NCBI GenBank assembly: GCA_963666205.1
Contig: OY762654.1
Coordinates: forward strand, 1,824,001-1,888,000
Source: Synergistales bacterium
GTDB taxonomy: Bacteria > Synergistota > Synergistia > Synergistales > JAFGMB01
Direction: 5' to 3'
Length of the DNA: 64,000 nucleotides
This document shows, one piece after another, positions 9,950 through 26,170 of the stretch. How positions within the stretch are numbered: the stretch's first letter is position 1; each line of letters begins with the position of its first letter. The notes under the pieces were generated by a model that did no database searches, was not told the DNA's origin, and saw only the letters and a list, made by a program, of their open reading frames with translations. Made by a program: the position numbers and the translations under genes.

Positions 9950-11137
9950 TTATTCGTTTCCCCATCTTCGAAGGATAATAATAACGTTAAAAAAAGGAAA
10001 GATCAGTACAATAGAAAAGGCATAAAGAAGCCCCTGGCGGTCTACTACCATCCCCACAAGGGTCATCATCAACCCGCTGAGACCGAAGGCGACTCCCATT
10101 AGAAGAGATGTAGCTGTACTTTTTGATCCGGGAGCAAGTTCCTGTGCCCTGGCAACTAAAAGAGGAGAAGATGAAACCAGTAGTGCGTTTCCAAGCATGA
10201 ACAGAATAAAGGGAATCCAGCCTTCGTAGAACAGCTCAGGGAAAAGCAGCAGGGGTGACATACCCTGGGCGAAGAGTAATACCCTTCTTTTGCCGTAGAT
10301 AAGGGCGGCCTTACCGGCCAGAAGAGGAGACATAACCTTTGCCAGCTGAACGAAAAAAAGTGTTAAACCTACCTTTTCTATACCTCCGCCTCTGAGCACG
10401 ACCAGGAGGGGCAGAAGGAACTTTATTCCGTGATTGGTTATGTCCCTGAGAAATGTAACGGTCCATACGGGCCAGATATCATGAAGGATATCCCTCACTA
10501 TTTTCAGGAAGTTTTTGGATTTTCCAGGTTTATCGATCTTGCCTTTGATAGAGGGGATCAGTATCCAGAACAGAATACCAGTTGCGGTTACAGGTATTAT
10601 CGGGAAAAGATTCAAAGGCAGATCTCTGAAGTGCTTGAAAAGAAAAGCTGCATATAGGGGGCTTAGGGAGCTTCCGAGTATTCCCACCATGCTGAAAAAG
10701 GCCAGTTGCAGGGGTATCTTCTCAATATTTCCAATATATCCTACAGACCCGTGTCCCTGGGGATGAAAAACAGCGCTTCCCAGCCCCCAGATGGAGACAA
10801 GAAGCAGGGCTGTCCCATAGGATGGAGAAGATGGGATAAGCGAAGCACCAAGGGCCGTCAGGACAGGACCCCAGACTATCATAAAAGGGCGGGAACTTGC
10901 ATCCGAAATAAAGCCCAATAATGGTTGAAGGAACATATTGAACAGCCCTGGCAGGGATGTAAGGATACCCGCTTGAGTTACTGAAATACCAAGGTTTTCG
11001 ATCAGAAAGGGTAGAAAGGTCTGCAGAAAAGCTGTATGCAGGTCATTCAGAAAATGCTGAAGGTAAATTAATGAAAGTTTTCTTTGAGTGCCAGGGATAA
11101 CGTTTTGAGAACTGATCAATATGGTCTCCTTGTTCAT
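9950..11137 (-). CDS. MFS transporter (Fsr-like)
   Basis: HFLNDL, QPLLG..SD, GLGSAVFHP motifs; about 12 TM segments. Confidence 0.85.
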   Translation of the reverse strand: MNKETILISSQNVIPGTQRKLSLIYLQHFLNDLHTAFLQTFLPFLIENLGISVTQAGILTSLPGLFNMFLQPLLGFISDASSRPFMIVWGPVLTALGASLIPSSPSYGTALLLVSIWGLGSAVFHPQGHGSVGYIGNIEKIPLQLAFFSMVGILGSSLSPLYAAFLFKHFRDLPLNLFPIIPVTATGILFWILIPSIKGKIDKPGKSKNFLKIVRDILHDIWPVWTVTFLRDITNHGIKFLLPLLVVLRGGGIEKVGLTLFFVQLAKVMSPLLAGKAALIYGKRRVLLFAQGMSPLLLFPELFYEGWIPFILFMLGNALLVSSSPLLVARAQELAPGSKSTATSLLMGVAFGLSGLMMTLVGMVVDRQGLLYAFSIVLIFPFFNVIIILRRWGNE

Positions 11138-11161
11138 AGGTTTTCAGAAGGTGTTGTGAAA

Positions 11162-12346
11162 TTAACTAATGCAGTCCTTTTTAATGGCTTTACTGATCCT
11201 TGTGAGACCTTCTGTTAACGTCGACCTGGGAGTTGCAATGGTCAACCTGGCAAATCCCTCTGTTACCTTGCCGAATTCTGCTCCTCTATTCATTCCTACC
11301 CTTGCTTCATGGACCAGAAAGTCCTGCAGTTTTTCTGAAGACAATCCCAGTTTTCTGAAATCTATAAGAGGGACATATGTGCCTTCAGGTTTTATGAGGT
11401 TTATCCCGGGCATATTCTTTTTCAGAAATTTTTCGGTAAAATTCAGGTTTTCTTCCAGATATTCAATCAATTCTTTCAGCCACTCTTCACCGGAACCGTA
11501 GGCAGCAGCAATTGCTTCCGAACCAAAGACGGTGACCCCTGCAAGGTGCATGCCCGAGATAAGGCTGTTGTATCGTTCCCGGAGATGTTCATCAGGGATA
11601 ACTACTATGGCCGACCGAAATCCGGCAAGGTTGAAAGTCTTGCTGGGTGAAAAACTTGTTATCGTTCTATTTCCGATATCCTCTGAAAGACTTGCTATTG
11701 GGATATGTTTATTCCCTCCATATATGATATCGGAATGAACCTCATCCGATACAATGATGATGTTCTTTTCAAGGCAGATTTCAGCCAGTTCTGTCAGTTC
11801 TTTTTCCCGCCAGACCCTGCCTGAAGGATTATGGGGATTACAGAGGAATAACATCCTTACCCCGGAATCCAGTTTATCTCTCAGGTCATCGAGGTCCATG
11901 GTAAAACGTCCATCATTGAGAACCAAGGTATTATCAACGATCCTTCGGCCATTCTCTTCAATGATATGGTAGAAAGGAGAGTAGATCGGAGACTGTATCA
12001 TGATCCTGTCTCCCGGTCTTGTAAGAGCAAGCATGGAAAAGACAAGGGAAGGTGTTACTCCTGGAGAGTGGCAGATCCATTCTTTCTCTATCTTCCAGCC
12101 ATGGCGGCGCATCATCCAGGAGATTATTACATCATAAAAATCGTCCGGCCTGTTAGGATACCCGAAAATACCATGATCAAGCCTTTTCTGGAGCCGTTCT
12201 ATCACCTCAGGGGGAGCCTGAAAATCCATATCCGCCTTCCACAGGGCCAGAATATCAGGATCACCGAACACTTTTCCGAGATTATCCCATTTCTGACAGG
12301 CCGTATTCTTTCTGTTTATAATCCTGTCAAAGTTGTATTTCCTCAT
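11162..12346 (-). CDS. MalY/PatB family PLP-dependent C-S (cystathionine beta-) lyase
   Basis: KWD, ADMDF, HGIFGY, LCNPHNPSGRVW, SDEVH, SPSKTFNLAG. Confidence 0.92.
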   Translation of the reverse strand: MRKYNFDRIINRKNTACQKWDNLGKVFGDPDILALWKADMDFQAPPEVIERLQKRLDHGIFGYPNRPDDFYDVIISWMMRRHGWKIEKEWICHSPGVTPSLVFSMLALTRPGDRIMIQSPIYSPFYHIIEENGRRIVDNTLVLNDGRFTMDLDDLRDKLDSGVRMLFLCNPHNPSGRVWREKELTELAEICLEKNIIIVSDEVHSDIIYGGNKHIPIASLSEDIGNRTITSFSPSKTFNLAGFRSAIVVIPDEHLRERYNSLISGMHLAGVTVFGSEAIAAAYGSGEEWLKELIEYLEENLNFTEKFLKKNMPGINLIKPEGTYVPLIDFRKLGLSSEKLQDFLVHEARVGMNRGAEFGKVTEGFARLTIATPRSTLTEGLTRISKAIKKDCIS

Positions 12347-12385
12347 AAACGGTGTCCCCCTTTCACAGTAATATCAATTTCTATA

Positions 12386-13762
12386 TCAATTTAAGAATTC
12401 AGTATCGCTGACACACTGTTTCCTGGAAAGAGCTATGACCGCATCAACCTGTTCAGCTGATTTGCCTATATGCTTGGTGTAGTCCATAACTGAATCAAGT
12501 TCTTCTTTTGTTAAATTTGCGCCTATTTCGGGATCTTCCAGAAGGAGTTCTCTGAATGTCTTATTGCCGGTGTTGGCCGCAAGTATGGCATCCCGGATCA
12601 GGTGATGGGCAGTCTGCTTTCCCATTTTTTCCCCGAGATGGAACATTAGGGCTTCTGAAAAGAGCATTCCGTGGAGCATGTCCAGATTCTCGCTTATCCT
12701 GGGTTCATTAATATCGAGACCTTCAACGACAACAGTACATGCCTGCAGGGCTTTTGCCATCATGATGCTGCTTTCGGGGATGGAATGCCAGTCAAGTCTC
12801 CAGCTCCGGGTGTCCCTCTCGTGTTCAGCTATCATTCCCTGAAGGCCAAGGCTGGCATTATTCATTATCACCCTGGTCATGGCTACTACGAATTCAGATG
12901 TTTCGGCATTCCTCTTATGGGGCATGGTGCTGCTGCCGACATAGTGTTTGCCCAGAGGTTCCTGAAGTTCAAGGATCTCTGTTCTGCTCAACTGGTAGAT
13001 CTCATTCGCAATTCTCCCTATAGTTCCGGCAATAATGCCGAGGAGGGACTGGTATTCTGCAAAGTTATCCCTGGAACTTCCCCATCCGGTAACGGGGACT
13101 TCAAGGGCTAATCTCTCCATGACACCCTCTATAATTGGGTAGGCCTTTTCTCCCAGACCGGCCATGGTTCCTGTTCCGCCATGAAGCATTCCCACGAACA
13201 GCCTTTGACTGGTATCCTTCATCCGTTCAATATCCCGTCTGACCTCTGCGGCCCAGCCGGCGAACTTGAGTCCGAGTGTTATGGGCAGACCCTGCTGGTT
13301 ATGGGTCCTGCCTGCCATGGGGAAGGCCTTGTATCGATCTGCCAGTTCCAGAATTGCCTTTTCAAGTCTGCAGAGATCTCTGAAAATGATACGGAAGGCA
13401 TCCTTTATCTCAAGGACCATTCCTGTATCCTCTATATCCTGGGTAGTTGGTCCGTAATGAATATATTCACCTAGGGAACCATCGCATATCTTCTGTACTG
13501 CACGAAGAAGGGGGACCAGGGAGTGTCCTGTCTGGGCGAGACCTTCCTTCACAAAATCCAGGTCCAGAAGTTCCACTTTGGCTTTTTTTGCGATCTCATC
13601 AGCTGCTTCTGAAGGAATTATTCCAAGCCCTGCCTGGACTTCTGCCAGTACGATCTCGATATCCAGCCATCTCTGGTATCTTTTCCTGTCGGAAAAGACA
13701 TTGCGCATCTCCTCCGTGCCCCATCCATTTTTATAAAATTCCGAATCAATAATATGTGCCAT
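12386..13762 (-). CDS. Adenylosuccinate lyase-like (fumarase/aspartase superfamily) C-X lyase, probably not PurB
   Basis: HYGPTTQD, GRTH, signature GSSTMPHKRN, EHERD..SW...W..IPE, GKQTAHH. Catabolic context. Confidence 0.85.
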   Translation of the reverse strand: MAHIIDSEFYKNGWGTEEMRNVFSDRKRYQRWLDIEIVLAEVQAGLGIIPSEAADEIAKKAKVELLDLDFVKEGLAQTGHSLVPLLRAVQKICDGSLGEYIHYGPTTQDIEDTGMVLEIKDAFRIIFRDLCRLEKAILELADRYKAFPMAGRTHNQQGLPITLGLKFAGWAAEVRRDIERMKDTSQRLFVGMLHGGTGTMAGLGEKAYPIIEGVMERLALEVPVTGWGSSRDNFAEYQSLLGIIAGTIGRIANEIYQLSRTEILELQEPLGKHYVGSSTMPHKRNAETSEFVVAMTRVIMNNASLGLQGMIAEHERDTRSWRLDWHSIPESSIMMAKALQACTVVVEGLDINEPRISENLDMLHGMLFSEALMFHLGEKMGKQTAHHLIRDAILAANTGNKTFRELLLEDPEIGANLTKEELDSVMDYTKHIGKSAEQVDAVIALSRKQCVSDTEFLN

Positions 13763-13795
13763 TTTTACAACTCCTCCATGTACTTGTTTTTCTTT

Positions 13796-15160
13796 TTACA
13801 GGATGCCTGAAACTTCAGGCATGTATAGTCCTTTGTAGGTTCTCATCTGATCCAGGGTGTAGATCCGGTTCAGGATCCTTTCCCTTTCTTCTTTTTCAAG
13901 GATTTGAGAGGTGAGTTCCGTAAACTTGTCAGTCATGGAAGTCTTGTCCATTGGGTTCTCGGGGTCACCTTTCCTGAATCGGTTCTCAGCGCTCAGGACA
14001 GTTCCATCCTTGAGAGTTACCGAGATACCACAGGGTCTGCAGGCGGGGAAGAGTCTGTCCAGCTCCGGATCGAATATGAGTTCTATTTTTGACATAAGAT
14101 CCCTGATAACAGGGTCCTGGAGATCCTTCTCCGAAAGATTGGTAAAGGTTATATCCTTTTTTGTAATAAGGGCGGCCATGCAGAAGGGATTGCTGAATTT
14201 AGCCTCTTCAAAGGAAGAGGGGTCTGTAATTCCAGCTACATCGATGGCTTTCTGGTAAACCCTTGCTTCGATCTTTTCTATTTCTTCGGGTATCAGGTCA
14301 TGGGTTTCCATGATCTTTTTCACTGCATCTATCATGCTATGGGTCTGGCCGCAGGTGGGATATCCCTTGAAATTAACTTCATCGACCTTGAAATGCGAAC
14401 CCAGTCTGTCTGCCAGGTATAAAAGGTCATAACTTGGAGATACTGACCTGCAGAATCCTTTTTCGCCTTCAAAAATATGTTCCGGCCCCTCGATTCCCTG
14501 GGAAGCAAGTTCAGCGGCGATAATACCGTTAAAAACCGCTTTGCCCGGATGGAAGGCTTTTGCCATAACTGCACCATCAAGAAGAAACTGCCAGAGACCG
14601 GCAGCCTGGGTCCCGGTATGTCCAAGGGTCCAGACGATCTCCTCTTCGCTCAGTTTCAGCATTTTTGCAGCAGCAGCAGCAGCGCCGAAAGTTCCGGCTG
14701 TCGCCGTAGTGTGCCATATGGAGTAATGGTCCTTGCCAAGACATTCTCCTACCCTGATGGCCAGATCATACGCGCAGACAGCGGCCTCGATCATCTCTTT
14801 TCCGGAGGAAGAGAGTTTTTCCGCATAGGCAAAAACCACAGGAAGGACAACTGTTCCAATGTGCATTATGGACATCCTGTGACCGTCATCAACTTCGGTT
14901 ATATGGCCCAGGCATGCATTCGCAAAGGCTGCCCAGGGAAGGGTGGTCTTTTTCCCGGAACCGATGATGGTGCTGTATCCTTCCCCGCCCATTCTGGAAG
15001 CAAAATCCAGGTATGATGTGGAAAGGTCATTCGTATATGAATTGTAGACTGCAGCAAGCCAGTCGGTAAAACAGTGCTCTGTTTTAAGTATTGTATTTTC
15101 AGGTAGTTTATCTAATTCCAGGCTTGAAATATATCTTGCAAACTGTCGGGAATAACTCAT
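13796..15160 (-). CDS. MmgE/PrpD family protein
   Basis: AAFAN..LGH..EVDDGH, WHTTAT.G, K.FHPG, FEGEKG, K.YPTCG..H, AKFS, KGDPENPM. Confidence 0.9.
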   Translation of the reverse strand: MSYSRQFARYISSLELDKLPENTILKTEHCFTDWLAAVYNSYTNDLSTSYLDFASRMGGEGYSTIIGSGKKTTLPWAAFANACLGHITEVDDGHRMSIMHIGTVVLPVVFAYAEKLSSSGKEMIEAAVCAYDLAIRVGECLGKDHYSIWHTTATAGTFGAAAAAAKMLKLSEEEIVWTLGHTGTQAAGLWQFLLDGAVMAKAFHPGKAVFNGIIAAELASQGIEGPEHIFEGEKGFCRSVSPSYDLLYLADRLGSHFKVDEVNFKGYPTCGQTHSMIDAVKKIMETHDLIPEEIEKIEARVYQKAIDVAGITDPSSFEEAKFSNPFCMAALITKKDITFTNLSEKDLQDPVIRDLMSKIELIFDPELDRLFPACRPCGISVTLKDGTVLSAENRFRKGDPENPMDKTSMTDKFTELTSQILEKEERERILNRIYTLDQMRTYKGLYMPEVSGIL

Positions 15161-15176
15161 TTTGATCTCTATCCCT

Positions 15177-16559
15177 TTAACCTGGAAAGACCATTTTTTC
15201 GGGCTTCAGGTATTTATTGAATTCTTCTTCCGTCATATAGCCAAGGGCCATAGCAGATTCCTTCAGGGTGGAACCTTCCTTATGGGCTTTTTTGGCAATC
15301 TCTGCTGCCCTGTCATAGCCGATGTGAGGGGTCAGTGCAGTTACGAGCATGAGTGATTCATTAAGGTATTTCTCAATTCTGTTCCTGTCAGCTTCTATTC
15401 CCCTGACTGCATTTTTCTCGAAGGAAGCCATTACATCAGTGAGCAGGCGACATGACTGAAGGAAGTTGTAAATGATCACAGGCATGAATACATTGAGCTC
15501 GAAGTTGCCCTGGCTGGCAGCCATACCGATAGCTGCATCGTTACCCATTACCTGGACCGAAACCATTGTTACGGCTTCGCACTGGGTGGGATTTACCTTT
15601 CCAGGCATGATGGAACTGCCCGGTTCGTTGGCTGGTATGGTTATCTCCCCAAGTCCGCAGCGGGGTCCGGAGGCAAGCCAGCGGACATCGTTAGCGATCT
15701 TCATGAGGTCAGCAGCGAGTGCCTTCAGGGCTCCATGGGCAAAGACCATCTCATCCTTGCTTGTCAGGGAATGGAACTTGTTGGGAGCCGTTCGGAACTG
15801 TTTCCCAGTCAGTTCAGAAATTTCTCCGGCTACGGATGTACCGAATTCAGGATGGGAATTCAGACCGGTTCCCACGGCTGTTCCACCAAGGGCAAGATCT
15901 TTCAGGAAATCCACACTGTTAAGGATCATTTCCCTGCTTCTCTCCAGCATCCTTACCCAGCCGCTGATCTCCTGACCAAGGGTCAGAGGGGTCGCATCCT
16001 GCAGGTGTGTCCTTCCTGTCTTTATGATGTCCGAAAATTCCAGGGACTTGTCCTGAAATGTTTTCAGGAGCCTGTCAAGAGAGGGGAGCAGTTCATCCTC
16101 AATCACCATTACAGCGGCCAGGTGCATGGCTGTTGGAAAGGTATCGTTGGAACTCTGGGATCTGTTCACATGATCATTCGGATGGATCTGGAGATCATTT
16201 TCACATATTTCCGAAGCTCTTCTGGAAAGGACTTCGTTCATGTTCATGTTTGACTGGGTACCGCTGCCCGTCTGCCATACTGCCAGGGGGAAATTGCCAT
16301 CCAGCTTTCCTTCCAGAACTTCATCAGCAGCCCTGCATATGGCATCAGCCCTTGCCTCATCGACAAGACCAAGGGACGCATTAGCTTTTGCCGCAGCTTT
16401 TTTTAGAATTGCAAAGGCCCGGATGACCTCATGAGGCATTTTTTCAATACCTATTTCGAAATTCTGCAGACTTCTCTGGGTCTGGGCTCCCCATAATTTA
16501 TCCGAAGGTACCCTGATTTCTCCCATGGAATCCTTCTCAATTCTGTAATTACCTTCCAA
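15177..16559 (-). CDS. fumC: Class II fumarate hydratase
   Basis: [55 protein letters not shown] start. Confidence 0.96.
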
Positions 16560-16586
16560 AATAAGTCCCTCCTTCAGATATTATCT

Positions 16587-17774
16587 TCAGATCCGTGCTG
16601 TACCAGTTTTTCTTGCGGCTTCCGCAACAGCTCTGGCAACGGCAGGGACAACCCTTTCGTCAAGGGCTCCCGGAATAATATATTCGGCATTGAGTTCTTC
16701 ATCAGAGACGAGTTCGGCAAGGGCCTTTGATGCAGCAAGTTTCATTTCCTCGTTTATATCAGAAGCTCTGACATCGAGGGTTCCCCTGAAAATACCCGGG
16801 AATCCGAGGCAGTTGTTGATCTGATTGGGGAAATCGCTTCTTCCGGTCGCAATAACCGCAGCTCCGGCTTCCTTTGCATCTTCAGGGAAAATCTCTGGTG
16901 TGGGATTAGCCATGGCGAAGATAATCGGTTTTTCTGCCATTTCTTTGACCATTTCTGTTGTCAGAAGACCGGGGGCAGAAATTCCGAGGAACACATCCGC
17001 TCCCTTCAGAACATCGGCAAGAGAACCTTTAAGCCTGTGGGGGTTCGTTTCCCGGGCGATTTCTTCCTTTGCCCAGTTCATGTTCTCTTCTCTTCCATCG
17101 TAAAGGGCTCCGGCCCTGTCACAGAGAACGACATCCTTCGCACCGGCGGACATGAGGAATTTACAGATGGCAGTACCGGCAGCTCCAGCCCCGCTCATTA
17201 TGATCCTGCAGTCCTCGATCTTCTTGCCAACTATTTTCAGAGCATTCCACAAGCCTGCCAGGACGATAACCGCTGTGCCATGCTGGTCATCATGAAAAAC
17301 AGGAATATTGGAAATTTCCTTGAGTTTCCTCTCTATCTCGAAACATCTTGGTGCTGCAATATCCTCCAGGTTTATTCCGCCGAAGGAAGAAGTAATAAGG
17401 CTGGAGATCTCCACGATCTTGTCTGGTTCCTGTGAGTCAATACATATCGGGAAGGCATCTATTCCTGCAAAACGCTTGAATAGGACGCACTTGCCCTCCA
17501 TTACAGGCAGAGAGGCGTCTGCTCCTATATTGCCCAGTCCCAGGACTGCGCTTCCATCGCTTATTACTGCCACCATGTTGGCCTTTGATGTAACTTCGTA
17601 AACTGCTTCAGGCCGGTTATGTATCTCCCGGCATGGCTCTGCCACTCCCGGAGTGTAGGCTATTGAAAGATCGTGCATGGTTTCAACGGACATTCTGGAT
17701 TCAACTGAAAGTTTACCCTTACTTTTCACATGAGCTTCAAGAGCTTCCTTGAAGATGGCTTCTTTTTTAGCCAA
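16587..17774 (-). CDS. NAD(P)-dependent malic enzyme
   Basis: YTPGVA, VMEGK, INLEDI, FHDDQHGT, GAGAAG, ATGRSDFPNQINN. Confidence 0.94.
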   Translation of the reverse strand: MAKKEAIFKEALEAHVKSKGKLSVESRMSVETMHDLSIAYTPGVAEPCREIHNRPEAVYEVTSKANMVAVISDGSAVLGLGNIGADASLPVMEGKCVLFKRFAGIDAFPICIDSQEPDKIVEISSLITSSFGGINLEDIAAPRCFEIERKLKEISNIPVFHDDQHGTAVIVLAGLWNALKIVGKKIEDCRIIMSGAGAAGTAICKFLMSAGAKDVVLCDRAGALYDGREENMNWAKEEIARETNPHRLKGSLADVLKGADVFLGISAPGLLTTEMVKEMAEKPIIFAMANPTPEIFPEDAKEAGAAVIATGRSDFPNQINNCLGFPGIFRGTLDVRASDINEEMKLAASKALAELVSDEELNAEYIIPGALDERVVPAVARAVAEAARKTGTARI

Positions 17775-17797
17775 GGTATTTCATCTCCCTTATATAT

Positions 17798-19291
17798 TTA
17801 TCGAACCCTGTGCCACACGAATTTGATCACGGGTGCAAGGGCAAAAAGCGCTGCTGCGACAAGCATAACCAGGCTTATGGGTCTCTGCAGAAAGATAAGG
17901 AAAGATCCCTTCGAAAGGACCAGACTCTGGTAGAGACCTCTTTCCATCATTGAACCAAGGACCATGGCCAGGATGAGGGGTGAATGGGGCAGATCCAGTT
18001 TATTGAAAATGTAACCCACCACACCAAAGAAAAGCATAACCCAGATATTGAAAATGCTGTTTCCTACAGCAAAGGCTCCGGTAACGCAAAGAAGGGCTAT
18101 GACTCCTGACAGTACAGCTCGAGGGATTTTGAAAATAACTCCGGAAAGGAATTTCCCGAGCATAATTCCGAGGGGTCCCATTATCAGGTTAGCAACAAAA
18201 AAGCCCACAATGATCAGGTAGGCTATATCTGGAGAATTCTGGAAAAGAGAAGGTCCTGGCCTTAATCCCTGTATCATAAGGGCACCAAGGAAAAGAGCCG
18301 ATGTGGAATTGCCGGGAACACCCAGGGAGAGCAGTGGTACCATGGAACTTGCTACAACAGCATTATTGGCGGCTTCTGGAGCAGCCACACCCTCGGGAAT
18401 TCCCGTTCCGAATTTCTTGTCTTTGTTGGAACGGACAGCCTGGTCGTAGGCAAAATAGATGGCCATGATCATTCCTGCACCTGGTATGACTCCAATGATA
18501 TTGCCTATGGCTGAAGATTTGATCCAGGTGGGCATAAGCCTTTTCACCATCTGTCTGTTCGGGAGGACCCTTGTGATCTTTGGAATAGGTCCTTCTGCGG
18601 CAAGGTTTGCTCCAACGGTTTTGATGGATTCAGCCACTTCAAGGACAGAGGTAACGCCAAAAAGGCCTATAAGCATGGGGATGAAGGGTATCCCTTCAAG
18701 GAGATAGGGGTTCTCGAAGTAGAAACGGGGGTATCCCGTCTGGGGGCTCATTCCTATGGTGGAGATCAGAAGGCCGATGGCGCAGACGATAAGACTTTTT
18801 AGAACCTTGTTGCCCGACATCCCTGCTACTGTACTGAGGCCAAGAATTGCCAGGGCAAAATATTCGGGAGGGCCGAATTTAAGGGCATAACTTGCAAGAA
18901 CAGGAGCAAGGAACATTAATATGAGAGAGCTTGTCAAACCTCCGAATACAGAACTGGTGGTTGATATGCCAAGGGCCAGTCCTGCTTCACCCTTCTGAGT
19001 CATGGGATAACCATCCAGAGTCGTTACGACGGAAGAAGCGGTACCTGGTATCTTTAATAGTATGGCCGGTATCGACCCCCCGTAACAGGCGGAACAATAA
19101 ACACCTACCAGCAGAGCGAAGGCCTGCTGAGGCTCCATGGAAAAGGTTACAGGAATGAGAACGGCCAGGGTGATAGTGTCATTGAGGCCTGGCAGTGAAC
19201 CTACTATCAGGCCGAGGACCACCCCGAAGAATAGAAAAGCGAACACTGATGGATGCAAAAGATCCAGAAATGCGCCGAGGATGTGCTCCAT
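17798..19291 (-). CDS. tctA: TTT large permease TctA
   Basis: GSLPGL, YGGSIPAILLKIPGT, FGPPEYF, PEAANNA, GVPG. Confidence 0.93.
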   Translation of the reverse strand: MEHILGAFLDLLHPSVFAFLFFGVVLGLIVGSLPGLNDTITLAVLIPVTFSMEPQQAFALLVGVYCSACYGGSIPAILLKIPGTASSVVTTLDGYPMTQKGEAGLALGISTTSSVFGGLTSSLILMFLAPVLASYALKFGPPEYFALAILGLSTVAGMSGNKVLKSLIVCAIGLLISTIGMSPQTGYPRFYFENPYLLEGIPFIPMLIGLFGVTSVLEVAESIKTVGANLAAEGPIPKITRVLPNRQMVKRLMPTWIKSSAIGNIIGVIPGAGMIMAIYFAYDQAVRSNKDKKFGTGIPEGVAAPEAANNAVVASSMVPLLSLGVPGNSTSALFLGALMIQGLRPGPSLFQNSPDIAYLIIVGFFVANLIMGPLGIMLGKFLSGVIFKIPRAVLSGVIALLCVTGAFAVGNSIFNIWVMLFFGVVGYIFNKLDLPHSPLILAMVLGSMMERGLYQSLVLSKGSFLIFLQRPISLVMLVAAALFALAPVIKFVWHRVR

Positions 19292-19389
19292 TTATAAATC
19301 CTCCTAGAGATCAGAATTAATTCGTAAAATCTTTTTCCCGAATATGGAGAAAAAGTAATTCTCTCGATTATTAAAGGTTTGCTTAAGAG

Positions 19390-19836
19390 CTAACCTTCCA
19401 GGAACAGACCTGGAGGCAAAGGAACCCCCAGCACTATTTTGAATGCAACATAAACTGCCAGTACACATCCTGCTGTGGTAAGAACCAGCGCCACTTTTTT
19501 TGAAAAACCGAGAAAGGATATAAGGAATAAAAGAAGTAAGAAAGACGAAACAAGATATCCTGCATATTTTAATGCAATGGTGTATACTCCTATCCCTGCC
19601 ACCACAATAAATACACCCTTCATTGAGGAAAAATCAGTTTCCTTTTCAGCATCTGTAACTCTCGTTACTACTATCGATTTGATAAGCAGAGCAAGAGAAA
19701 GCCCCCCAAGAACCAAAGCAAGTCTTGTGGGGAAATGTGACGCTATATCTGGATATTCCTTGGAAACAATAAATGTAGAAAGACTTATAACCAGTAACGT
19801 TACTGCTAAAATAGAATCTTTCAGCCAGTTTTTCAT
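19390..19836 (-). CDS. tctB: TTT small permease TctB
   Basis: Hydrophobic 148 aa, FP, GY..S, C-terminal LGVPLPPG. Confidence 0.85.
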   Translation of the reverse strand: MKNWLKDSILAVTLLVISLSTFIVSKEYPDIASHFPTRLALVLGGLSLALLIKSIVVTRVTDAEKETDFSSMKGVFIVVAGIGVYTIALKYAGYLVSSFLLLLFLISFLGFSKKVALVLTTAGCVLAVYVAFKIVLGVPLPPGLFLEG

Positions 19837-19920
19837 CTCTAAACCCCCGAAAAATCAAAAGATCACAAAAAAGAGAAGTGGACCCTGAATTTTCAAGGTC
19901 CACAATATTAAATACTGGAA

Positions 19921-20874
19921 CTAGTTCTTATTCAGAGTTGGGATTACTTTCTGCAGGTCTTCGGCTACAATCTCTACGTATGCAGCGAAATCAGCACCAT
20001 TACGGTAAACGACGGGGAATCCTGCCTTTTCCATACTGGCTGCATAGTCAGGGTCAGCTATTATGTCCTTGAATATTTTATCAAGGGCCTGAACTGTTTC
20101 ATCGGGGGTGTCGCCAGGAACGGCAAGACCTCTGAAGGCGCCCCATTCAAGATCAAAACCAGCTTCCTTGAAAGTGGGGACTTCTGGTACATTGGGATCT
20201 CTTTCAGCAACTGCAACTGCGAGTGCCCTTAGAGTACCATCTTTCACATAACTTGTAGCTTCTCCCATTGCCATCATACCCGCATCCACATGTCCGCCAA
20301 GGAGCTGCTGAAGCTGCATGGCGGCACTCTCGTTGTGGACATAGCCGAATTTGACTCCAAGTTTGGATTCCATAATAAGAGATGCAATGTGATGGGAGGT
20401 GGAATATCCTGGAGTAGCTACACTGAGTTCCTTTTCTTTTGCCGCATTGATCAGATCCTCCAGAGTTTTGTAGGGGGAATCGGCCGGAACCATAAGGATC
20501 TCGGGGTCGAAACAGTACATGGCTATGGTCTTGAAGGACTTATGGGTATAGGTTGTTTTTTTGGTCATAGGATTGGAAACAACGGAAGAAGTATACGCAA
20601 GGATAGTGTATCCGTCCGGTTTGGCCTTTGATACAAAAGTGTGGCCGATGACTGCTCCGCCTCCGGGCATATTCTCAACGATGATCTTCTTGTCTCCAAG
20701 ATATTTAGGAGCCACTTCTGCGAGCATCCTGCATGTTGTGTCAACTCCGCCGCCTGGTGCAAAGGGAACGATTATTTTAAGGTTCTTTTCCGGGAAAGTA
20801 CCCGCAAAAGCTCCTGCAGTACCAACTAACACCAGACACATAACCGCGATAATACCGATAACTGTTTTCCTCAT
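19921..20874 (-). CDS. tctC: TTT substrate-binding protein TctC
   Basis: FPEKNLKIIVPFAPGGGVD, ENMPGGG, KPDGYT, LGGHVD. Start at ATG 20874 (SD GAGGAG). Confidence 0.92.
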   Translation of the reverse strand: MRKTVIGIIAVMCLVLVGTAGAFAGTFPEKNLKIIVPFAPGGGVDTTCRMLAEVAPKYLGDKKIIVENMPGGGAVIGHTFVSKAKPDGYTILAYTSSVVSNPMTKKTTYTHKSFKTIAMYCFDPEILMVPADSPYKTLEDLINAAKEKELSVATPGYSTSHHIASLIMESKLGVKFGYVHNESAAMQLQQLLGGHVDAGMMAMGEATSYVKDGTLRALAVAVAERDPNVPEVPTFKEAGFDLEWGAFRGLAVPGDTPDETVQALDKIFKDIIADPDYAASMEKAGFPVVYRNGADFAAYVEIVAEDLQKVIPTLNKN

Positions 20875-20947
20875 TTTTCTATCTCCTCTCGATTTTGTCT
20901 TTATTTTTTGTAACTTATTGCACATCTGAATAGAATTACAAAGGATC

Positions 20948-22246
20948 CTATTCGAACCTTTTCTTTATGAAATCAATGATGATACTGTCAACCCCGGTCA
21001 TTCCTTCCACATTGATGGAAGCAGCGTTTGCCACGGTCTTCTCTATGGTATCGTCCACCACTCCCTGGGGTCCGTTCAGGCCATTGCCTCCCATCACGAT
21101 CATGGCCGCATGGTAGGATTCAAGGGCTCCCGTCCCTACCTTCAGGGCACAGGTCTCCTTCGCTCCGTCACATACCATCCCTACAAGGTTCCCCAGTACC
21201 ATCTCCACTGCCTTCTCTGCCTTTGCTATGTCTTTACTCAGAAGATAGACGATCCCCGATGCCGCTCCTGCTCCTGCAGCTACGCTGCATCCGCATACGG
21301 GGCTGAGTCTGCCCATCCTGCTCTTTATGAAGGATGTGGTGAGGTGGCTGAAGGCTATGGCTTTCGCTATCTCTTCCCTGCTCTTGCCATAATGATCTCC
21401 TGCTACGTATACGGGAAGGATGGCGGTGATCCCGTGGTTGCCGCTTCCGGCACTGCTCATAACGGGATAGGGTGCTCCGTCCATTCGTGCGTCGGAGGCT
21501 GCCGCCGCCACTGCCTTGATCCTGCTGCTCAGGTCATCGGAGTCGTAATGCTCACCTGCCAGTTTCTTTATGGTGGATCCGAGGTTGATGCCTACGTTGT
21601 GAGTGAATCCGTATTCGGCTATGGTGAGGTTCATGTCCACTCCGTTCATGACGTAGTCCACGTCCTCTGCGTCCATGTCCTCAGCCATACTGACCAGCTC
21701 CGAGTAGTTCATCCTTTCCACCTGCTCGGGGATGGATAGGGTCTTACTGCCGTTCTTGTCCTCTGTCCCTTTTTCTGTTTCAAATATGACCCTGTCGTTG
21801 AGGGTAACCTTCGTTATATTGGTGTGGGTGCTCTCTATGACCGTCACTGCTGTGTCATTTTCACTGCTCACCCTGGATTCCACATATACTCCGTGGCGGT
21901 CAAGGTCGGGGATTATGACCACCTTCCCTGAATCCACCATGGCCTGGGACTTTTTCACAGTATCGGCATCGCAGTCCTTGAGAACTTCAAGGCCGTATTC
22001 CGACTTTCCCTGAAGGGCTGCCATGGCTGCTGCTATGTCGTTGCCCTTGAGGCCTCCTGTACCTGGAATACCTACGTACATGCCGTTCTTGTATATGCTG
22101 TCGCTTACCACTACCTCGATCTCTTTAACGGGGGCCCCTCCAAGTTCCTCTACGGCCCTCGCTACGCCCAGTGCCACCGCACCGGGCTCAGTACATCCCA
22201 ATGCAGGCTTCACTTCCGATCTCAAAAATTCCCTGATTGTAAACAA
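20948..22246 (-). CDS. L-cysteine desulfidase family protein (CyuA/YhaM, UPF0597; Fe-S, serine dehydratase alpha-like)
   Basis: PALGCTEP, KN...V.IPGT, H.NI, ASDARM.G, MSSAGSGNHG, LSPVCGC, GMVCDGAK.TCALK. Confidence 0.9.
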   Translation of the reverse strand: MFTIREFLRSEVKPALGCTEPGAVALGVARAVEELGGAPVKEIEVVVSDSIYKNGMYVGIPGTGGLKGNDIAAAMAALQGKSEYGLEVLKDCDADTVKKSQAMVDSGKVVIIPDLDRHGVYVESRVSSENDTAVTVIESTHTNITKVTLNDRVIFETEKGTEDKNGSKTLSIPEQVERMNYSELVSMAEDMDAEDVDYVMNGVDMNLTIAEYGFTHNVGINLGSTIKKLAGEHYDSDDLSSRIKAVAAAASDARMDGAPYPVMSSAGSGNHGITAILPVYVAGDHYGKSREEIAKAIAFSHLTTSFIKSRMGRLSPVCGCSVAAGAGAASGIVYLLSKDIAKAEKAVEMVLGNLVGMVCDGAKETCALKVGTGALESYHAAMIVMGGNGLNGPQGVVDDTIEKTVANAASINVEGMTGVDSIIIDFIKKRFE

Positions 22247-22279
22247 GATATATACCTCCAGTATCTATTCATATGTTGA

Positions 22280-22963
22280 TCAGTTTCCGTTATTTGTTAT
22301 CTTGTTCAGGTATCTGTAGATGGAGTTCTCTGAAGTTTCAAGAAGACTTGCCACTTCGCCCAGTGCACCTCGGAGAAGGAAGACTCCCCTTGAATTAAGT
22401 TTCTCTACAATATCCATTTTTTCGTCGGGAGTCATTCTTGAAGGAGGAACAGGGGAACCATGGATAGTATCCTTGATGATGGAATGGGTCAGGTCCTCTA
22501 TGGAATTATCTTCTTCCTCGGCAAGGATGACCGGCTGTGGTTCCTGCTGAATCCTTACTCCAGGTCCGAGAACGTATTCGTCCAGAAGTTCTTTGAGTTC
22601 TGAAAATCTGGTCAGGTCCATGTTCAGGCAGAGAAGACCGATAAGATCTCCATCTTCATCTTTAATCAGGTAAGACGCAGTTTTACGCTTTCTTCCCTTC
22701 TCATCGGATACTATCCTAGATTTAATGAAATCTGCAGAAGGGTTTTCCTGTTCACGAAAAAATCTCCCCAGATTCTTTAAGGGATCTCCTATGGTTCTTC
22801 CACTGATGTGATTGTTCTCTATGGCGACTATGGATTTCTCTATATTTCTCACATCGTGGAGGACTACTTCACAGTTATAACCAAGGAAACGGGCTAGAAA
22901 TTTCACCAGGGGAACATATGCCTGAAGTTTTTTATTAATTTCCTGGTCAGTCTTCATGAGCAT
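22280..22963 (-). CDS. YheO-like PAS + HTH transcriptional regulator
   Basis: CEVVLHD, SIVAIEN..ISGR..GDP, IGLLCLN.D, GVFLLRGA...VA..L..S..SIYRYL. Confidence 0.92.
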   Translation of the reverse strand: MLMKTDQEINKKLQAYVPLVKFLARFLGYNCEVVLHDVRNIEKSIVAIENNHISGRTIGDPLKNLGRFFREQENPSADFIKSRIVSDEKGRKRKTASYLIKDEDGDLIGLLCLNMDLTRFSELKELLDEYVLGPGVRIQQEPQPVILAEEEDNSIEDLTHSIIKDTIHGSPVPPSRMTPDEKMDIVEKLNSRGVFLLRGALGEVASLLETSENSIYRYLNKITNNGN

Positions 22964-23278: not shown

Positions 23279-24562
23279 TTACTTGACCATTTCCGGGAGA
23301 TACATGATTACAGAAGGGAATATAATAGCCATAAACAGGGAGATAACAGCTATAAGAACGATTGGAAGTACTGCCCTGCTGCTTTTAGCCAGATCCACAT
23401 TTCCAACTCCCGAGGCAACGAAAAGACAGGTTCCCACGGGAGGAGTGAGGGCTCCAATACAGATATTAAGAACCAGGAGCACTCCAAAATAGATAGGATC
23501 GATCCCCGCTATTTTTATCAGGGGAAGAGCTACCGGACTTATTAGAACCAGAATAGAAACTGCGTCGATAAAGCAGCCGAGGAAAAGGATGAAAATATTC
23601 AACAGGATCAGGATGATTAGGGGATTCTTTGAAACAGACAACAGTGATCTCGTTATGGTCTGAGGTATCTGCTGACTTGTCAGAACCCAGCTTAGAAATG
23701 AAGCAACCGCTATTATGAACATTACCGAGGAAGTATTTCGAGCAGCTCGGGCAAAAACTTCAGGGATGTCTTTCCATTTCAACTCACCATAGATAAATTT
23801 ACCTACCAGAAAAGCATAGACAGCAGCAACCACAGAAGATTCGGTTGCAGTGAAAATTCCGCTCAGGATGCCGCCAAGTATTATCACTGGCATTAGAAAT
23901 GCAAGGAAGCCTTTCTGAAAAGTCCTTAGGAGCTTTTCAAAACTGAAGGATGATGTTTCCCTGGGATAATCGTGACGAAGGGCTTCGTAATATGAGTATG
24001 CCATCAGGAAGAGCCCGAAGGTTATACCTGGAATAACCCCCCCAAGAAATAGTTTGGCTACAGAAACATTTGCTATCACGGCATAAATAACCATGGGGAT
24101 ACTCGGCGGAATTATGGGGCCGATTGCCCCTCCTGCCGCAATAAGTGCTGCGGCGAAACCTTCCCTGTATCCTTTTTCCCTCATGGAAGGTATCAGAAGA
24201 GAACCCACTGCAGCAGTATCTGCGACAGCCGAACCACTCAAGCCCGCAAAAAGCATGGATAAGACAACAGCAACCTGGGCAAGACCGCCTCTCATCCGGC
24301 CAACCAGGGCAAATGAAAATTCCATGAGTCTTCTGGAAATACCTCCTGCTTCCATGAGTGTTCCCGCAAGCATAAAGAAAGGAACAGCAAGAAGGGAGAA
24401 ATGGTCTACTCCCTGGTACATAACGTGGCCAAGAAGTACGGGATTGAAAATGCCCTGTACTGATGCGATGAGAACACCTGTCAGTCCGAGGGCTATGGCA
24501 ATTGGCATCCCGAAAATTACAGTAAGAAAAAACAGGATGAAATACAGGATGATCTGGAGCAT
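23279..24562 (-). CDS. dctM: TRAP transporter large permease DctM
   Basis: LAVPFF, SGSAVAD, IIPPSI, GIFTATES, LTPPVG. Confidence 0.93.
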   Translation of the reverse strand: MLQIILYFILFFLTVIFGMPIAIALGLTGVLIASVQGIFNPVLLGHVMYQGVDHFSLLAVPFFMLAGTLMEAGGISRRLMEFSFALVGRMRGGLAQVAVVLSMLFAGLSGSAVADTAAVGSLLIPSMREKGYREGFAAALIAAGGAIGPIIPPSIPMVIYAVIANVSVAKLFLGGVIPGITFGLFLMAYSYYEALRHDYPRETSSFSFEKLLRTFQKGFLAFLMPVIILGGILSGIFTATESSVVAAVYAFLVGKFIYGELKWKDIPEVFARAARNTSSVMFIIAVASFLSWVLTSQQIPQTITRSLLSVSKNPLIILILLNIFILFLGCFIDAVSILVLISPVALPLIKIAGIDPIYFGVLLVLNICIGALTPPVGTCLFVASGVGNVDLAKSSRAVLPIVLIAVISLFMAIIFPSVIMYLPEMVK

Positions 24563-25060
24563 TTAGGCATCCTCCGCTGTTCTAGTCCAGTTGTGAATAA
24601 GGCGTTCAATAATAACGATAATAGCAAGTATTCCTGATACAGGGATCACCATGTAGATCATGCCCATGGGTACATTTATGGAAGTGGCCATCTGCATCAT
24701 CTGTCTTTTAACCAGGGGTATGCTTCCCTTGGACAGGTAATAAAAAAACAGTATGTAGCTTGCTGAAATAAATAAAGACATGAACCTGGATCTCCAGCCT
24801 TTTAGTCTTGAAAGAAACAGATTGAAGGATGTCATTCCTGATCTGTATATCAGGGTTGGTACTCCGGCAAAAACGACCCATGTAAAGAGAAAGCGCGAAA
24901 GTTCCTCGCTCCATGGAATGGAAAAATCAAGCAGATATCGGCAGAAAACCTGGGCAAAGGTGGCTGTGGTCATGATCAGAAGAAAAAAGAAAAGCATGTA
25001 TGTGGATATCTTGTCTATTGCAAAAGCTGTCCTGGAAAGGGCTTTTTGAAAAAATTGCAT
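24563..25060 (-). CDS. dctQ: TRAP transporter small permease DctQ
   Basis: QVFCRY, WSEELSR, four TM segments. Start at 25060 (SD GGAGGA). Confidence 0.88.
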   Translation of the reverse strand: MQFFQKALSRTAFAIDKISTYMLFFFLLIMTTATFAQVFCRYLLDFSIPWSEELSRFLFTWVVFAGVPTLIYRSGMTSFNLFLSRLKGWRSRFMSLFISASYILFFYYLSKGSIPLVKRQMMQMATSINVPMGMIYMVIPVSGILAIIVIIERLIHNWTRTAEDA

Positions 25061-25145
25061 TGATGAAGGTCCTCCCATATCAGAAAACTGACAGGGGAAA
25101 GAAAGAACTTCTTTCCCCTGTATATCTTCATTTTAGCTGTTAAGT

Positions 25146-26138
25146 TTATTTTACAGTTTTGATCCTCTCGATGTACTCTCCGGCAGTCTTGCCGTTAGCC
25201 TTGGTAAATTCATCATAAATTGAGCCCATGTATTCAGCGAACTCACTTTTATCTACTTCATTTATCTCCATGCCCTGGTTTTTGAGATTTTCCAGCAGTT
25301 TCTGTTCCTGATCCTCAACCATTTTACGGACTTCTGGTCTTACCTCCTCAAAGGCCTCGACAACGATCTTCTGGAGGTCTTCCGGAAGGCTGTTGTAGAA
25401 CTGGTCAGAGATCATTATAGTGACGGGAGAATAGATGTGGCCGGTAAGAGAAAGATACTTCTGGACCTCGTAAAGTTTGGATGCCCAGATTATGGAAAGA
25501 GGATTTTCCTGACCGTCAATAACTCCCTGCTGCAGAGAAGTGTACACATCGCCGAAGGGCATTGGGACAGGGCTTGCTCCAAGAGCAGCGATAGTATCCA
25601 TTACCGTTTTTGTTTCAGGAACGCGTATCTTCAGACCCTTGAAATCCTCCGGTTTTACAATTGCTTTTTTGGAGTTGGTAGTATTTCTATAAAGATTCAT
25701 CCAGTAACCCAGTATCCTTATACCTGTTTTTTCCCTGAACAGCTCGTTAAGTTCCTGACCGATCTCTCCGTCCACTGTGTTGTAGACATGCTGGTTATCA
25801 CGGTAAAGATAGGGAAGTTCAAGAACTCCAAGGAGGGGCATGAAGGATGCCAGTCCGCCGGGGCTCTGGGTACCTATTTCGATGGTTCCCAACTGAAGAC
25901 CTTCAGAAATTGCTCTCAGGTTTCCCAACTGTCCGCTTGGATAGGCAGTAGCCTCGATCCGACCGCCGGATTTCTCGTTCATTATTGAAGCCATTTTTTC
26001 GAAACCAACGTGAAGTGGATGTTCAGGTGCTGTTACGTTCGCGATCTTGATGACATACTTGTCAGCCGCTGAAGCAGTCAACGCGAACAGAGACAGGGCT
26101 AGAACTACTACAACTGATAATATGAAGCACTTTTTCAT
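25146..26138 (-). CDS. dctP: TRAP substrate-binding protein DctP
   Basis: Signal peptide, YPSGQLG, GLKIRV (carboxylate-binding Arg), LQQGVIDGQENP. Confidence 0.93.
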   Translation of the reverse strand: MKKCFILSVVVVLALSLFALTASAADKYVIKIANVTAPEHPLHVGFEKMASIMNEKSGGRIEATAYPSGQLGNLRAISEGLQLGTIEIGTQSPGGLASFMPLLGVLELPYLYRDNQHVYNTVDGEIGQELNELFREKTGIRILGYWMNLYRNTTNSKKAIVKPEDFKGLKIRVPETKTVMDTIAALGASPVPMPFGDVYTSLQQGVIDGQENPLSIIWASKLYEVQKYLSLTGHIYSPVTIMISDQFYNSLPEDLQKIVVEAFEEVRPEVRKMVEDQEQKLLENLKNQGMEINEVDKSEFAEYMGSIYDEFTKANGKTAGEYIERIKTVK

Positions 26139-26170
26139 GAAAAACACCCCTTTGGAAAATATTGTTTTCT

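Follow-up and report, generated by a model that had tools for sequence, protein, structure and literature searches.

Fumarate and cysteine form the adduct S-(2-succino)cysteine (2SC), which marks fumarate stress in diabetes, in fumarate-hydratase-deficient tumours and under treatment with fumarate-ester drugs. Two bacterial routes for this compound are recognised and both depend on acetylation. One is encoded by the yxe/scm locus of B. subtilis with the monooxygenase YxeK/ScmK, the other by a variant of this locus with an S-(2-succino) lyase (2SL; Hillmann et al. 2022, PMC9706529). The passages of that paper on the lyase report that 2SL cleaves N-acetyl-2SC to fumarate and N-acetylcysteine, acts on 2SC to a minor extent and works with several small thiols. 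They place the equilibrium of the reaction far towards the adduct and argue that acetylation protects the cysteine and fumarate pools. The same paper mentions yxe loci with neither key enzyme and calls for a search for further pathways (PMC9706529). A January 2026 preprint still names just these two routes and found neither of them in its gut strains. Here we analysed a 64,000-nucleotide stretch of the genome of a Synergistales bacterium (contig OY762654.1, positions 1,824,001 to 1,888,000), which we refer to as the window. It contains an 11-gene operon which may encode a route of a different build, centred on an adenylosuccinate-lyase-like (ASL-like) lyase, an MmgE/PrpD-family protein, a cysteine desulfidase and a tripartite tricarboxylate transporter (TTT).

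The 11 open reading frames (ORFs) form one run on the minus strand (window 9950-22963 in the ORF listing). From the first to the last gene the intergenic gaps are 33, 22, 84, 98, 23, 27, 16, 33, 39 and 24 bp. An earlier reading of the sequence alone (the sequence-only reading) had described 11 co-oriented, tightly spaced genes, and the ORF coordinates with their gaps of 16-98 bp agree with it. There are 315 bp of non-coding DNA 5' of the first gene and 124 bp 3' of the last. Gene families were called with Pfam and NCBIfam searches of the window ORFs, and these recovered all of the families which that reading had named. From the first to the last gene, with a hairpin in one of the gaps, the features are as follows.

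22280-22963, minus strand: first gene, YheO-like transcription regulator with PAS_6 sensor and HTH_22 (PF08348 1.7e-33, PF13309 8.3e-19)
20948-22246, minus strand: CyuA-type [4Fe-4S] L-cysteine desulfidase, 432 aa (SDH_alpha as sole Pfam domain)
19921-20925, minus strand: TctC, periplasmic solute-binding protein of a TTT (PF03401 1.5e-50)
19878-19903, minus strand: terminator-like hairpin in the tctC/tctB gap, 11 pairs followed by a T-run (consensus scan)
19390-19836, minus strand: TctB, small membrane subunit (PF07331 6.5e-16)
17798-19291, minus strand: TctA, large permease subunit (PF01970 4.2e-149)
16587-17774, minus strand: short-form NAD(P) malic enzyme (malic and Malic_M domains; NF009501 423 bits, N-terminal half)
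15177-16559, minus strand: FumC, class II fumarate hydratase (TIGR00979 764.6 bits, cut-off 664.75)
13796-15160, minus strand: MmgE/PrpD-family protein, predicted epimerase at the succinyl C2 (MmgE_PrpD_N and C domains)
12386-13762, minus strand: adenylosuccinate-lyase-like lyase of the 'W' subfamily, predicted S-(2-succino)cysteine lyase (Lyase_1 and ADSL_C)
11162-12346, minus strand: PatB-family cysteine-S-conjugate/cystathionine beta-lyase, a pyridoxal phosphate (PLP) enzyme (TIGR04350 477.9 bits, cut-off 340)
9950-11137, minus strand: last gene, MFS transporter (MFS_1 1.9e-22; NCBIfam matches weak)

No GNAT, amidohydrolase or ABC domain was detected by Pfam in the 11 operon genes, in line with the claim that the operon has no GNAT, deacetylase or ABC importer. 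Pfam likewise found no GNAT among the 45 remaining ORFs of the window, and a Niallia query found no YxeL-like GNAT in the genome. The enzyme set is also oxygen-independent, as had been proposed; CyuA is a [4Fe-4S] enzyme.

We infer the substrate, the activities and the order of the steps from the gene identities, catalytic residues, synteny and phylogeny that we observed. 2SC is the simplest compound which gives fumarate and cysteine and has a stereocentre on the succinyl carbon. To judge from the sequences it is the probable substrate, whichever enzyme acts first. That the operon serves 2SC catabolism with the lyase acting ahead of the cysteine enzymes is the order we prefer, though we hold it tentatively and at slightly under an even chance. 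In this order TctCBA would import 2SC with its three carboxylates and the MmgE/PrpD protein would interconvert the 2SC diastereomers at the succinyl C2. The ASL-like lyase would eliminate cysteine from the right diastereomer of free, non-acetylated 2SC and release fumarate. CyuA, and probably also PatB, would destroy the cysteine irreversibly to pyruvate, NH3 and H2S, while FumC would convert the fumarate to malate and the malic enzyme would convert malate to pyruvate and CO2. The drain of both products would pull a lyase equilibrium which otherwise favours the adduct, and would thereby replace the acetylation and deacetylation of the known pathways.

The gene set recurs in other genomes and is thus not a chance arrangement. 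We scored 17 distinct lineages of the W family (our name for the subfamily of the window lyase) with one script. They belong to Synergistota, Desulfovibrionales and one other metagenome-assembled genome (MAG); as they are mutually related and their flank lengths differ, the counts describe this sample and are not independent trials. The numbers of W lineages with each partner were:

MmgE/PrpD adjacent to the lyase: 17/17
CyuA-like: 12/17
TctC and TctA: 11/17
YheO at the cluster head: 8/17
PatB: 5/17
malic enzyme: 5/17
RidA directly after YheO: 4/17
FumC: 4/17
MFS: 3/17 (own, G165 and G164)
M20: 1/17
AstE/AspA deacylase: 1/17
GNAT: 0/17

Either a CyuA-like gene or PatB is present in 15/17; the exceptions are a lineage represented solely by contigs of 5-6 kb and a locus with a DcuC carrier instead. 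As a control we used 23 loci from ASL-like subfamilies other than W, among them the purB of the same genome; 0/23 carry a CyuA-like and 9/23 a PrpD-like gene. The linkage to a cysteine enzyme is therefore specific to the W family (12/17 vs 0/23) and supports a cysteine adduct as substrate. The conserved core consists of the transporter, MmgE/PrpD, the lyase and CyuA, with YheO and RidA in some lineages, and FumC, malic enzyme, PatB and MFS are lineage-specific add-ons. The expectation that the synteny would be found in other anaerobes was thus confirmed across the 17 lineages; conservation of the whole gene set held for the core but not for the four add-ons.

The W family is patchy. It occurs in 6/268 Synergistota genomes and in 9/401 genomes sampled from the order of a Desulfovibrionaceae carrier. 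A 401-genome sample from the phylum of the carrier G268 contained, besides G268, just 40-47% relatives which belong to other subfamilies and lack the module. In a metagenome scan we obtained 15 loci, 6 of them close relatives and 5 of these repeating lineages known from genomes.

Several W loci vary the arrangement. In a Desulfovibrionaceae locus an AstE/AspA-family deacylase (L012:4336-5373) and a TAXI-TRAP transporter stand in place of TctCBA, and this lineage might import an N-acylated form of the substrate. In the W locus L020 a pair of M20 and ABC genes lies a few kb off. The Desulfovibrionales W loci have no linked fumC or malic enzyme, and we suppose that in these carriers the fumarate enters general metabolism. 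Two Desulfovibrionales loci, L058 and L061, contain tandem W-family lyase paralogues with 62% and 54% and with 67% and 55% identity to the window lyase, respectively. The tandem lyases fall into different supported subclades and the PrpD-like gene is still there; the two copies may be specific for different isomers or substrates. We also observed a DUF1847 gene following the CyuA-like gene in two distant W lineages (L020:8016-8648 and L056:12360-12758).

The lyase passes no NCBIfam model. It scores 484 bits with NF006500 (cut-off 626), 481.7 bits with the XcbD model NF052536 (cut-off 600), 372.3 and 261.6 bits with the PcaB models NF006554 (cut-off 595) and TIGR02426 (cut-off 355.75), and 317.7 bits with the purB model TIGR00928, under the cut-off of 326.2. 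Neither 2SL nor the W family has an NCBIfam model of its own. A separate true purB with 529.5 bits is located at G000:C1:2915265-2916551. This purB and the score below the TIGR00928 cut-off exclude the lyase as PurB, and the concern that it might be the only PurB of the genome is settled. PcaB was rejected with both models below cut-off and no pca genes in the window, and XcbD with the score below the NF052536 cut-off, no phosphosulfolactate synthase in the operon and no XcbB/XcbC neighbours. The fold is that of a class I lyase/ASL enzyme with the SS-loop signature, as for 2SL: the catalytic SS-loop SSTMPHKRN spans residues 277-285, and S277, K283 and N285 are invariant in 38 aligned rows. Two further features of 2SL are missing, since the gene does not lie in a yxe/scm locus (GNAT YxeL, ABC YxeMNO, M20 YxeP) and is not orthologous to the lyases of such loci.

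Among proteins of known structure the best relatives of the lyase are PcaB enzymes (282 bits), followed by the trans-aconitate decarboxylase Tad1 (257 bits) and adenylosuccinate lyases. More than 5000 proteins match at E <= 1e-50; the best 120 of them are all at least 51% identical, and where a source is named the name is generic. In a plasmid protein search the lyase was 40-41% identical to lyases of yxe/scm loci on Pantoea and Niallia megaplasmids. These loci contain a GNAT, an amino-acid ABC transporter and an M20 amidohydrolase, and the Niallia locus also a luciferase-like monooxygenase. Their lyases served as our 2SL references, assigned by yxe/scm context following the locus description in PMC9706529. 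XcbD of Xanthobacter Py2, which lies in a coenzyme M cluster, is 38% identical.

For the tree we used 56 rows, a quick IQ-TREE run and approximate likelihood-ratio (SH-aLRT) support only; the characterised 2SL of E. italicus and D. dadantii, the iminodisuccinate (IDS) and ethylenediaminedisuccinate (EDDS) lyases and Tad1 are not among the rows. The W clade comprises 35 rows including the window lyase (SH-aLRT 98), with subclades of 29 rows (99) and 6 rows (98). Outside it lie the context-defined 2SL rows of Pantoea and Niallia, which form a supported pair of their own, a Proteus/E. coli pair, XcbD and several unknown groups, and the backbone is weakly supported (85-88). On these sequences the window lyase is a relative of the known S-succino lyases placed outside their clade. 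The sequence-only reading had proposed to place it in a phylogeny with the characterised S-(2-succino) lyases, and orthology with this type did not hold.

Of ten reference lyases tested, 8/10 score 454-502 bits on the NF006500 and XcbD models, the Xanthobacter XcbD and L026 differ, and 10/10 are under both cut-offs. Two plasmid genes annotated 'pcaB' (L026, L027) were discarded as PcaB references, with a dicarboxylate symporter and fumC as neighbours and not pca genes, which leaves the comparison set without a bona fide PcaB reference. The yxe/scm-locus lyases themselves exceed the purB cut-off of TIGR00928 (326.2), with 384 bits for Pantoea (L013:8995-10365) and 370 bits for Niallia (L016:8995-10359). 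The Pantoea lyase is annotated purB in its record and the Niallia locus is unannotated, and it is likely that 2SL is systematically misannotated as purB.

The MmgE/PrpD gene is the sole one of its family in the genome. The sequence-only reading had listed it correctly and given it no role; it turned out to be the most constant partner of the lyase and resembles an epimerase. Its top match in the PDB is IDS-epimerase 2hp3 (129.6 bits), ahead of a B. subtilis 'IRG1' homologue (113.9 bits) and cis-aconitate decarboxylases (93-105 bits). Residues H86, E89, H100, Y146, H150, K201 and K265 align with H85, D88, H99, Y145, H150, K198 and K266 of IDS-epimerase. Thus both family domains and the residue set of the two-base epimerase type are present, and 12/16 other W-family PrpD rows keep this set. 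In L009, L060 and L062 the Tyr is replaced by His; these represent a second PrpD type with 28% identity. In the parts of PMC12290011 and PMC7347537 which treat the family, all characterised members act at C2 of a 2-substituted succinate, and two isomerising members use a His/Tyr two-base mechanism. The second-base Tyr is described there as missing from the mammalian decarboxylases (PMC7347537), and methylsuccinate as the substrate of one characterised isomerase (PMC12290011). Because the catalytic set of IDS-epimerase including the second-base Tyr is kept, we predict that the protein is a 2SC epimerase at the succinyl carbon. When a thiol adds chemically to fumarate, both configurations should arise, so that a stereoselective lyase would need such an epimerase. 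YxeQ of B. subtilis is presumably an MmgE/PrpD-family protein as well, perhaps the one in PDB entry 7bra. It appears as 'unknown function' in the description of the yxe locus in PMC9706529, and nothing further on the function of YxeQ/ScmQ was found under these names.

The cysteine-degrading enzymes proposed for the operon could be verified at the level of residues and models. Over 424 aa the CyuA-like protein shares 34% identity with E. coli CyuA (E 2e-76), and its best PDB match is the L-cysteine desulfidase 9fsl (109 bits). The active-site residues and the three cluster cysteines C287, C329 and C336 of M. maripaludis CyuA were taken from the passages of PMC12647591 which name them. The window protein keeps C23/E25, R223, N239, C287, C329, C336 and K339 of MmCyuA (chain numbering offset by 2) and thus has the full residue set of an L-cysteine desulfidase. 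PatB exceeds the TIGR04350 cut-off for C-S lyases, is the sole intact PatB above this cut-off in the genome and matches PatB 6qp3 (387 bits), cysteine-S-conjugate beta-lyases and cystalysin in the PDB. RidA, which accompanies YheO in some lineages, is the deaminase for the 2-aminoacrylate released by such eliminations.

The position of CyuA varies by lineage: it can precede tctC, follow the lyase or precede the lyase. As the linked CyuA genes of the W loci are not set off from E. coli CyuA as a single clade, the sequences suggest that ordinary cysteine desulfidases were recruited more than once into these loci. In the window genome the cyuA-like ORF (window 20949-22245) has a 98.7% nucleotide copy at G000:C1:1804620-1805916, 40 kb off and exactly as wide as the ORF, so its place in the operon is recent. 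The second copy follows an M20 peptidase and a fused beta+alpha L-serine dehydratase.

TctC, TctB and TctA are encoded by three adjacent genes, as expected for a TTT. In the PDB TctC matches TTT binding proteins at the level of the family (best 181 bits). It is 52-72% identical to TctC of W loci in other phyla and about 26-32% identical to unrelated TctC of the same loci. TctA is 65-98% identical in 10 other W-family lineages (65-82% between phyla), and for the remaining TctC and TctA genes of these loci the identity is 26-42%. Because the linked subunits are far more alike than the unrelated copies, the transporter travels with the enzymes. YheO is likely the regulator of the operon.

FumC passes the class II fumarase model TIGR00979 and is below cut-off for the aspartase models (aspA TIGR00839 455.5 vs 681.2). 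FumC and malic enzyme recur beside paired lyase and PrpD genes, in paralogous clusters as well as in W loci, which fits fumarate as the common product. The genome has three malic-enzyme genes, one of them in the operon. Searches of the genome with FumC and class I fumarase queries found no fumarase besides the operon FumC, which is thus not a dedicated extra copy. The sequence-only reading had seen dedicated catabolic genes for both halves of the molecule; the linkage of a cysteine enzyme bears this out for one half, but a dedicated FumC for the other could not be upheld.

Two modules, YheO-CyuA-TctCBA and malic enzyme-FumC-PrpD-lyase-PatB-MFS, seem to be fused in the window operon. In a close relative (G164-type) the series malic enzyme-FumC-PrpD-lyase-PatB-MFS stands behind a CitA/DpiB-like sensor pair, and TctCBA and CyuA are absent from the 5.6 kb upstream of this cluster. 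Its MFS thus stands without TctCBA and may be the importer there. The alternative layout YheO-(RidA)-TctCBA-PrpD-lyase-CyuA is found in other lineages. The host genome is a single contig of 2.95 Mb with Synergistota as closest public relatives, and the operon lyase is 91% identical to the lyase of an Acetomicrobium hydrogeniformans MAG. G+C across the operon (window 12001-22000) is 0.45-0.50 compared to about 0.44-0.46 in the flanks, which fits acquired DNA.

Contigs from four RNA libraries of two studies (at least 95% alike) cover pieces of 9/11 genes; DNA carry-over is possible, and this cover is a weak hint that the operon is expressed. The YheO-like gene and tctB have no such cover, though uncovered stretches carry no meaning. 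The hairpin at 19878-19903 may be an intra-operon attenuator or stabiliser which raises the level of the binding protein; the scan, by consensus only, gave 22 terminator-like sites in the region vs 15.1 expected, so this call is weak. The promoter scan of the region was uninformative (14 sites vs 19.4 expected).

A similar set of functions is found in enterobacteria. In Proteus mirabilis (L015) DcuC and a PLP enzyme of Cys/Met metabolism are divergent from a lyase and an MmgE/PrpD gene, with a LysR regulator. An E. coli island consists of the Proteus cluster plus fumC and matches 65/5426 complete genomes, 36 of them at >=80% cover; one example (L063) is flanked by insertion sequences on the EBJ003 chromosome (1487080-1495727). 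RefSeq labels the island genes fumC, dcuC, metC, purB and MmgE/PrpD. The lyase belongs to another clade than W, and the transporter and the sulfur-amino-acid enzyme come from other families. The functions nevertheless match those of the window operon, with a carrier for carboxylates, a PrpD-like protein, an ASL-like lyase, a C-S lyase and a fumarase. Separately, we observed clusters in other Synergistota (L021, L022 and L024) which combine a PrpD-like protein (35% identity) with a NadB/fumarate-reductase-like flavoprotein, GntR and an ASL-like lyase (33-43%), and also contain malic enzyme, FumC and carriers of the TRAP or another type. These clusters may serve another succino adduct, perhaps of the aspartate type.

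A number of points weigh against a 2SC operon in which the lyase acts first. According to PMC9706529 the characterised 2SLs strongly prefer the N-acetylated substrate, and a lyase acting on free cysteine is argued there to drain the fumarate and cysteine pools. Tight coupling to CyuA as a protection of these pools would explain why CyuA is the most specific partner. The window lyase lies outside the context-defined 2SL clade on a weakly supported backbone, and the 2SL references are themselves defined by gene context only. The 17 lineages are not independent of one another, most W loci lack FumC, malic enzyme, PatB and MFS, and the L012 deacylase and the M20 and ABC genes at L020 suggest that acylated forms may be relevant in some lineages. 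The family-level matches of TctC give no substrate specificity. FumC as sole fumarase and cyuA as a very recent duplicate need not be dedicated to the pathway. The 2SC proposal of the sequence-only reading is supported in part: gene identities, the separate purB, the missing acetylation genes and the synteny stand, but the lyase is no orthologue of the characterised type and FumC no dedicated copy.

The rival that survives best keeps 2SC as the substrate and reverses the order. A C-S beta-lyase (PatB here, MetC-like in E. coli and Proteus, possibly CyuA-like elsewhere) would release pyruvate, NH3 and mercaptosuccinate, PrpD would racemise the latter and the ASL-like lyase would eliminate H2S to give fumarate. 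We consider this order unlikely, yet a serious rival. 2SC is a cysteine S-conjugate, and among solved structures PatB is closest to cystathionine and cysteine-S-conjugate beta-lyases, but CyuA-like genes occur in 12/17 W loci and PatB in just 5/17. Mercaptosuccinate is a close analogue of methylsuccinate, on which an MmgE/PrpD isomerase acts (as described in part of PMC12290011), and the several small thiols accepted by 2SL (PMC9706529, passages on the lyase) would also suit this order; no H2S-releasing enzyme of the ASL family, however, is reported in the literature examined. The desulfidase keeps all residues for free cysteine, and the recruitment of ordinary CyuA lineages fits free cysteine as the intermediate. 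The reversed order is strongest for the clusters with PatB or MetC alone, that is, the G164-type cluster, which has PatB and no CyuA within 5.6 kb upstream, and the E. coli and Proteus clusters, which carry solely the MetC-like PLP enzyme.

A second possibility, which we regard as distinctly unlikely, is a different 2-substituted succinate which yields fumarate and another leaving group. It could be of the N-succino amino acid type, as iminodisuccinate is, the S-succino form of another thiol, or an adduct in which the fumarate is substituted. In that case the cysteine enzymes would act on a related amino acid or in general metabolism, as the recent duplication of the operon cyuA would allow. 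ASL-like and PrpD-like pairs do occur with NadB-like flavoprotein, GntR and TRAP in the paralogous Synergistota clusters, PrpD-like genes are found in 9/23 non-W loci, the top PDB match of the PrpD-like protein is IDS-epimerase and no curated family claims the lyase. Against this, the CyuA-like link is specific to the W family, the PatB, MetC-like and RidA partners in other lineages back the connection to cysteine, and the adduct of fumarate and cysteine is the simplest compound which covers all partners.

An operon for a citrate- or aconitate-type tricarboxylate, with PrpD as a dehydratase or cis-aconitate decarboxylase and a Tad1-like lyase, could draw on the naming of TctCBA, on the cis-aconitate decarboxylase (93-105 bits) and Tad1 (257 bits) relatives in the PDB and on the CitA/DpiB-like sensor pair of the G164-type relative, but it is very improbable, as the PrpD-like protein has the epimerase-type Tyr that is missing in the mammalian decarboxylases (PMC7347537), Pfam found no itaconate-degradation genes in the operon and CyuA, RidA, PatB, FumC and malic enzyme would be left unexplained. 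Equally improbable is a biosynthetic, XcbD/XcbE-like operon in which the lyase adds cysteine to fumarate, PatB makes mercaptosuccinate and the terminal MFS exports it: there is a precedent in XcbD/XcbE (PMC9457059) and the lyase equilibrium favours addition (PMC9706529, passages on the lyase), but the binding-protein importer, the cysteine-destroying CyuA, the epimerase, FumC and malic enzyme indicate breakdown, and PatB and MFS are missing in most W loci.

The remainder of the window contains further genes for small acids and some of other kinds. A DctPQM TRAP transporter (23279-26147) with the orientation of the operon directly precedes it at a distance of 315 bp. At 536-6817 on the minus strand a second TctCBA stands with a class I/II aminotransferase, an RpiR-type regulator and an HMGL-like enzyme, and looks like another carboxylate utilisation cluster. 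Two genes of the PEP-mutase/isocitrate-lyase family are present (40093-40950 and 53570-58259), one of them accompanied by genes for an IclR regulator and a TRAP transporter. At 51869-53439 the gene of a type III polyketide synthase precedes that of an ICMT-family methyltransferase, and a 584-aa ORF at 37804-39558 has no Pfam match at 1e-5.

Taken further, the W-family clusters may represent a third 2SC pathway, strictly anaerobic and free of acetylation, which moves horizontally between phyla. This is possible, if somewhat more doubtful than the lyase-first order for the window operon. Such a pathway would combine a TTT importer, a 2SC epimerase within the MmgE/PrpD family and a lyase subfamily specific for free 2SC, with CyuA and RidA drawing the lyase reaction irreversibly forward. 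No literature linking 2SC with MmgE/PrpD, TctC or a desulfidase was found in a search whose coverage lacks most subscription journals. If true, this damage metabolite would have a third bacterial route, with one predicted new enzyme activity, that could operate in anoxic guts, sediments and digesters, where the adduct would be a source of energy, carbon and sulfur for amino-acid fermenters and sulfate reducers. It would add a lyase for free 2SC and a 2SC epimerase to what is described, the latter in the poorly understood MmgE/PrpD family, and would suggest a role for B. subtilis YxeQ. It would also provide a mechanism for running a thermodynamically unfavourable lyase step without acetylation, and Proteus and about 1% of complete E. 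coli genomes would carry a differently built equivalent.

We finally compare the operon with the systems it resembles. The anaerobic cysteine fermentation of E. coli by CyuA/CyuP uses the same type of desulfidase to convert cysteine to pyruvate, NH3 and H2S under anoxia. Here, in contrast, the cysteine would arise inside the cell from an imported adduct, and the operon has no CyuP importer. In bacterial coenzyme M biosynthesis XcbD adds cysteine to sulfoacrylate (PMC9457059). XcbD/XcbE share with our locus an ASL-like enzyme acting on a cysteine thioether beside a carboxylate and a PLP enzyme acting on the cysteine part, and the XcbD model is the second-best NCBIfam match of the window lyase; they differ in the biosynthetic direction and the sulfoacrylate substrate, and the window operon has no XcbB/XcbC neighbours.

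Iminodisuccinate degradation in Agrobacterium tumefaciens BY6 reportedly relies on an epimerase and a stereoselective C-N lyase. The logic of an epimerase with a stereoselective fumarate-releasing lyase would be the same here and the PrpD residues are kept, but that route cuts a C-N bond of a synthetic chelator in an aerobe, and the PrpD similarity is limited to 129.6 bits. With the yxe/scm system of B. subtilis the operon shares the proposed substrate 2SC. YxeK differs in that it needs O2 and yields oxaloacetate, and the B. subtilis route requires acetylation and deacetylation as well as an ABC importer.

A further related system is the 2SL variant of the yxe/scm locus (Hillmann et al. 2022, PMC9706529). 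The lyases have the Lyase_1 and ADSL_C domains in common at about 40% identity, both are O2-independent and the same bond is predicted to be cut, with fumarate released from the S-succino group. In contrast to the 2SL enzymes, the window lyase falls into a separate clade and is predicted to act on free 2SC, and its operon has no GNAT, ABC importer or M20 deacetylase. The lyase is instead paired with MmgE/PrpD, CyuA and a TTT importer, and whereas the 2SL locus salvages cysteine, the window operon is predicted to catabolise both products.

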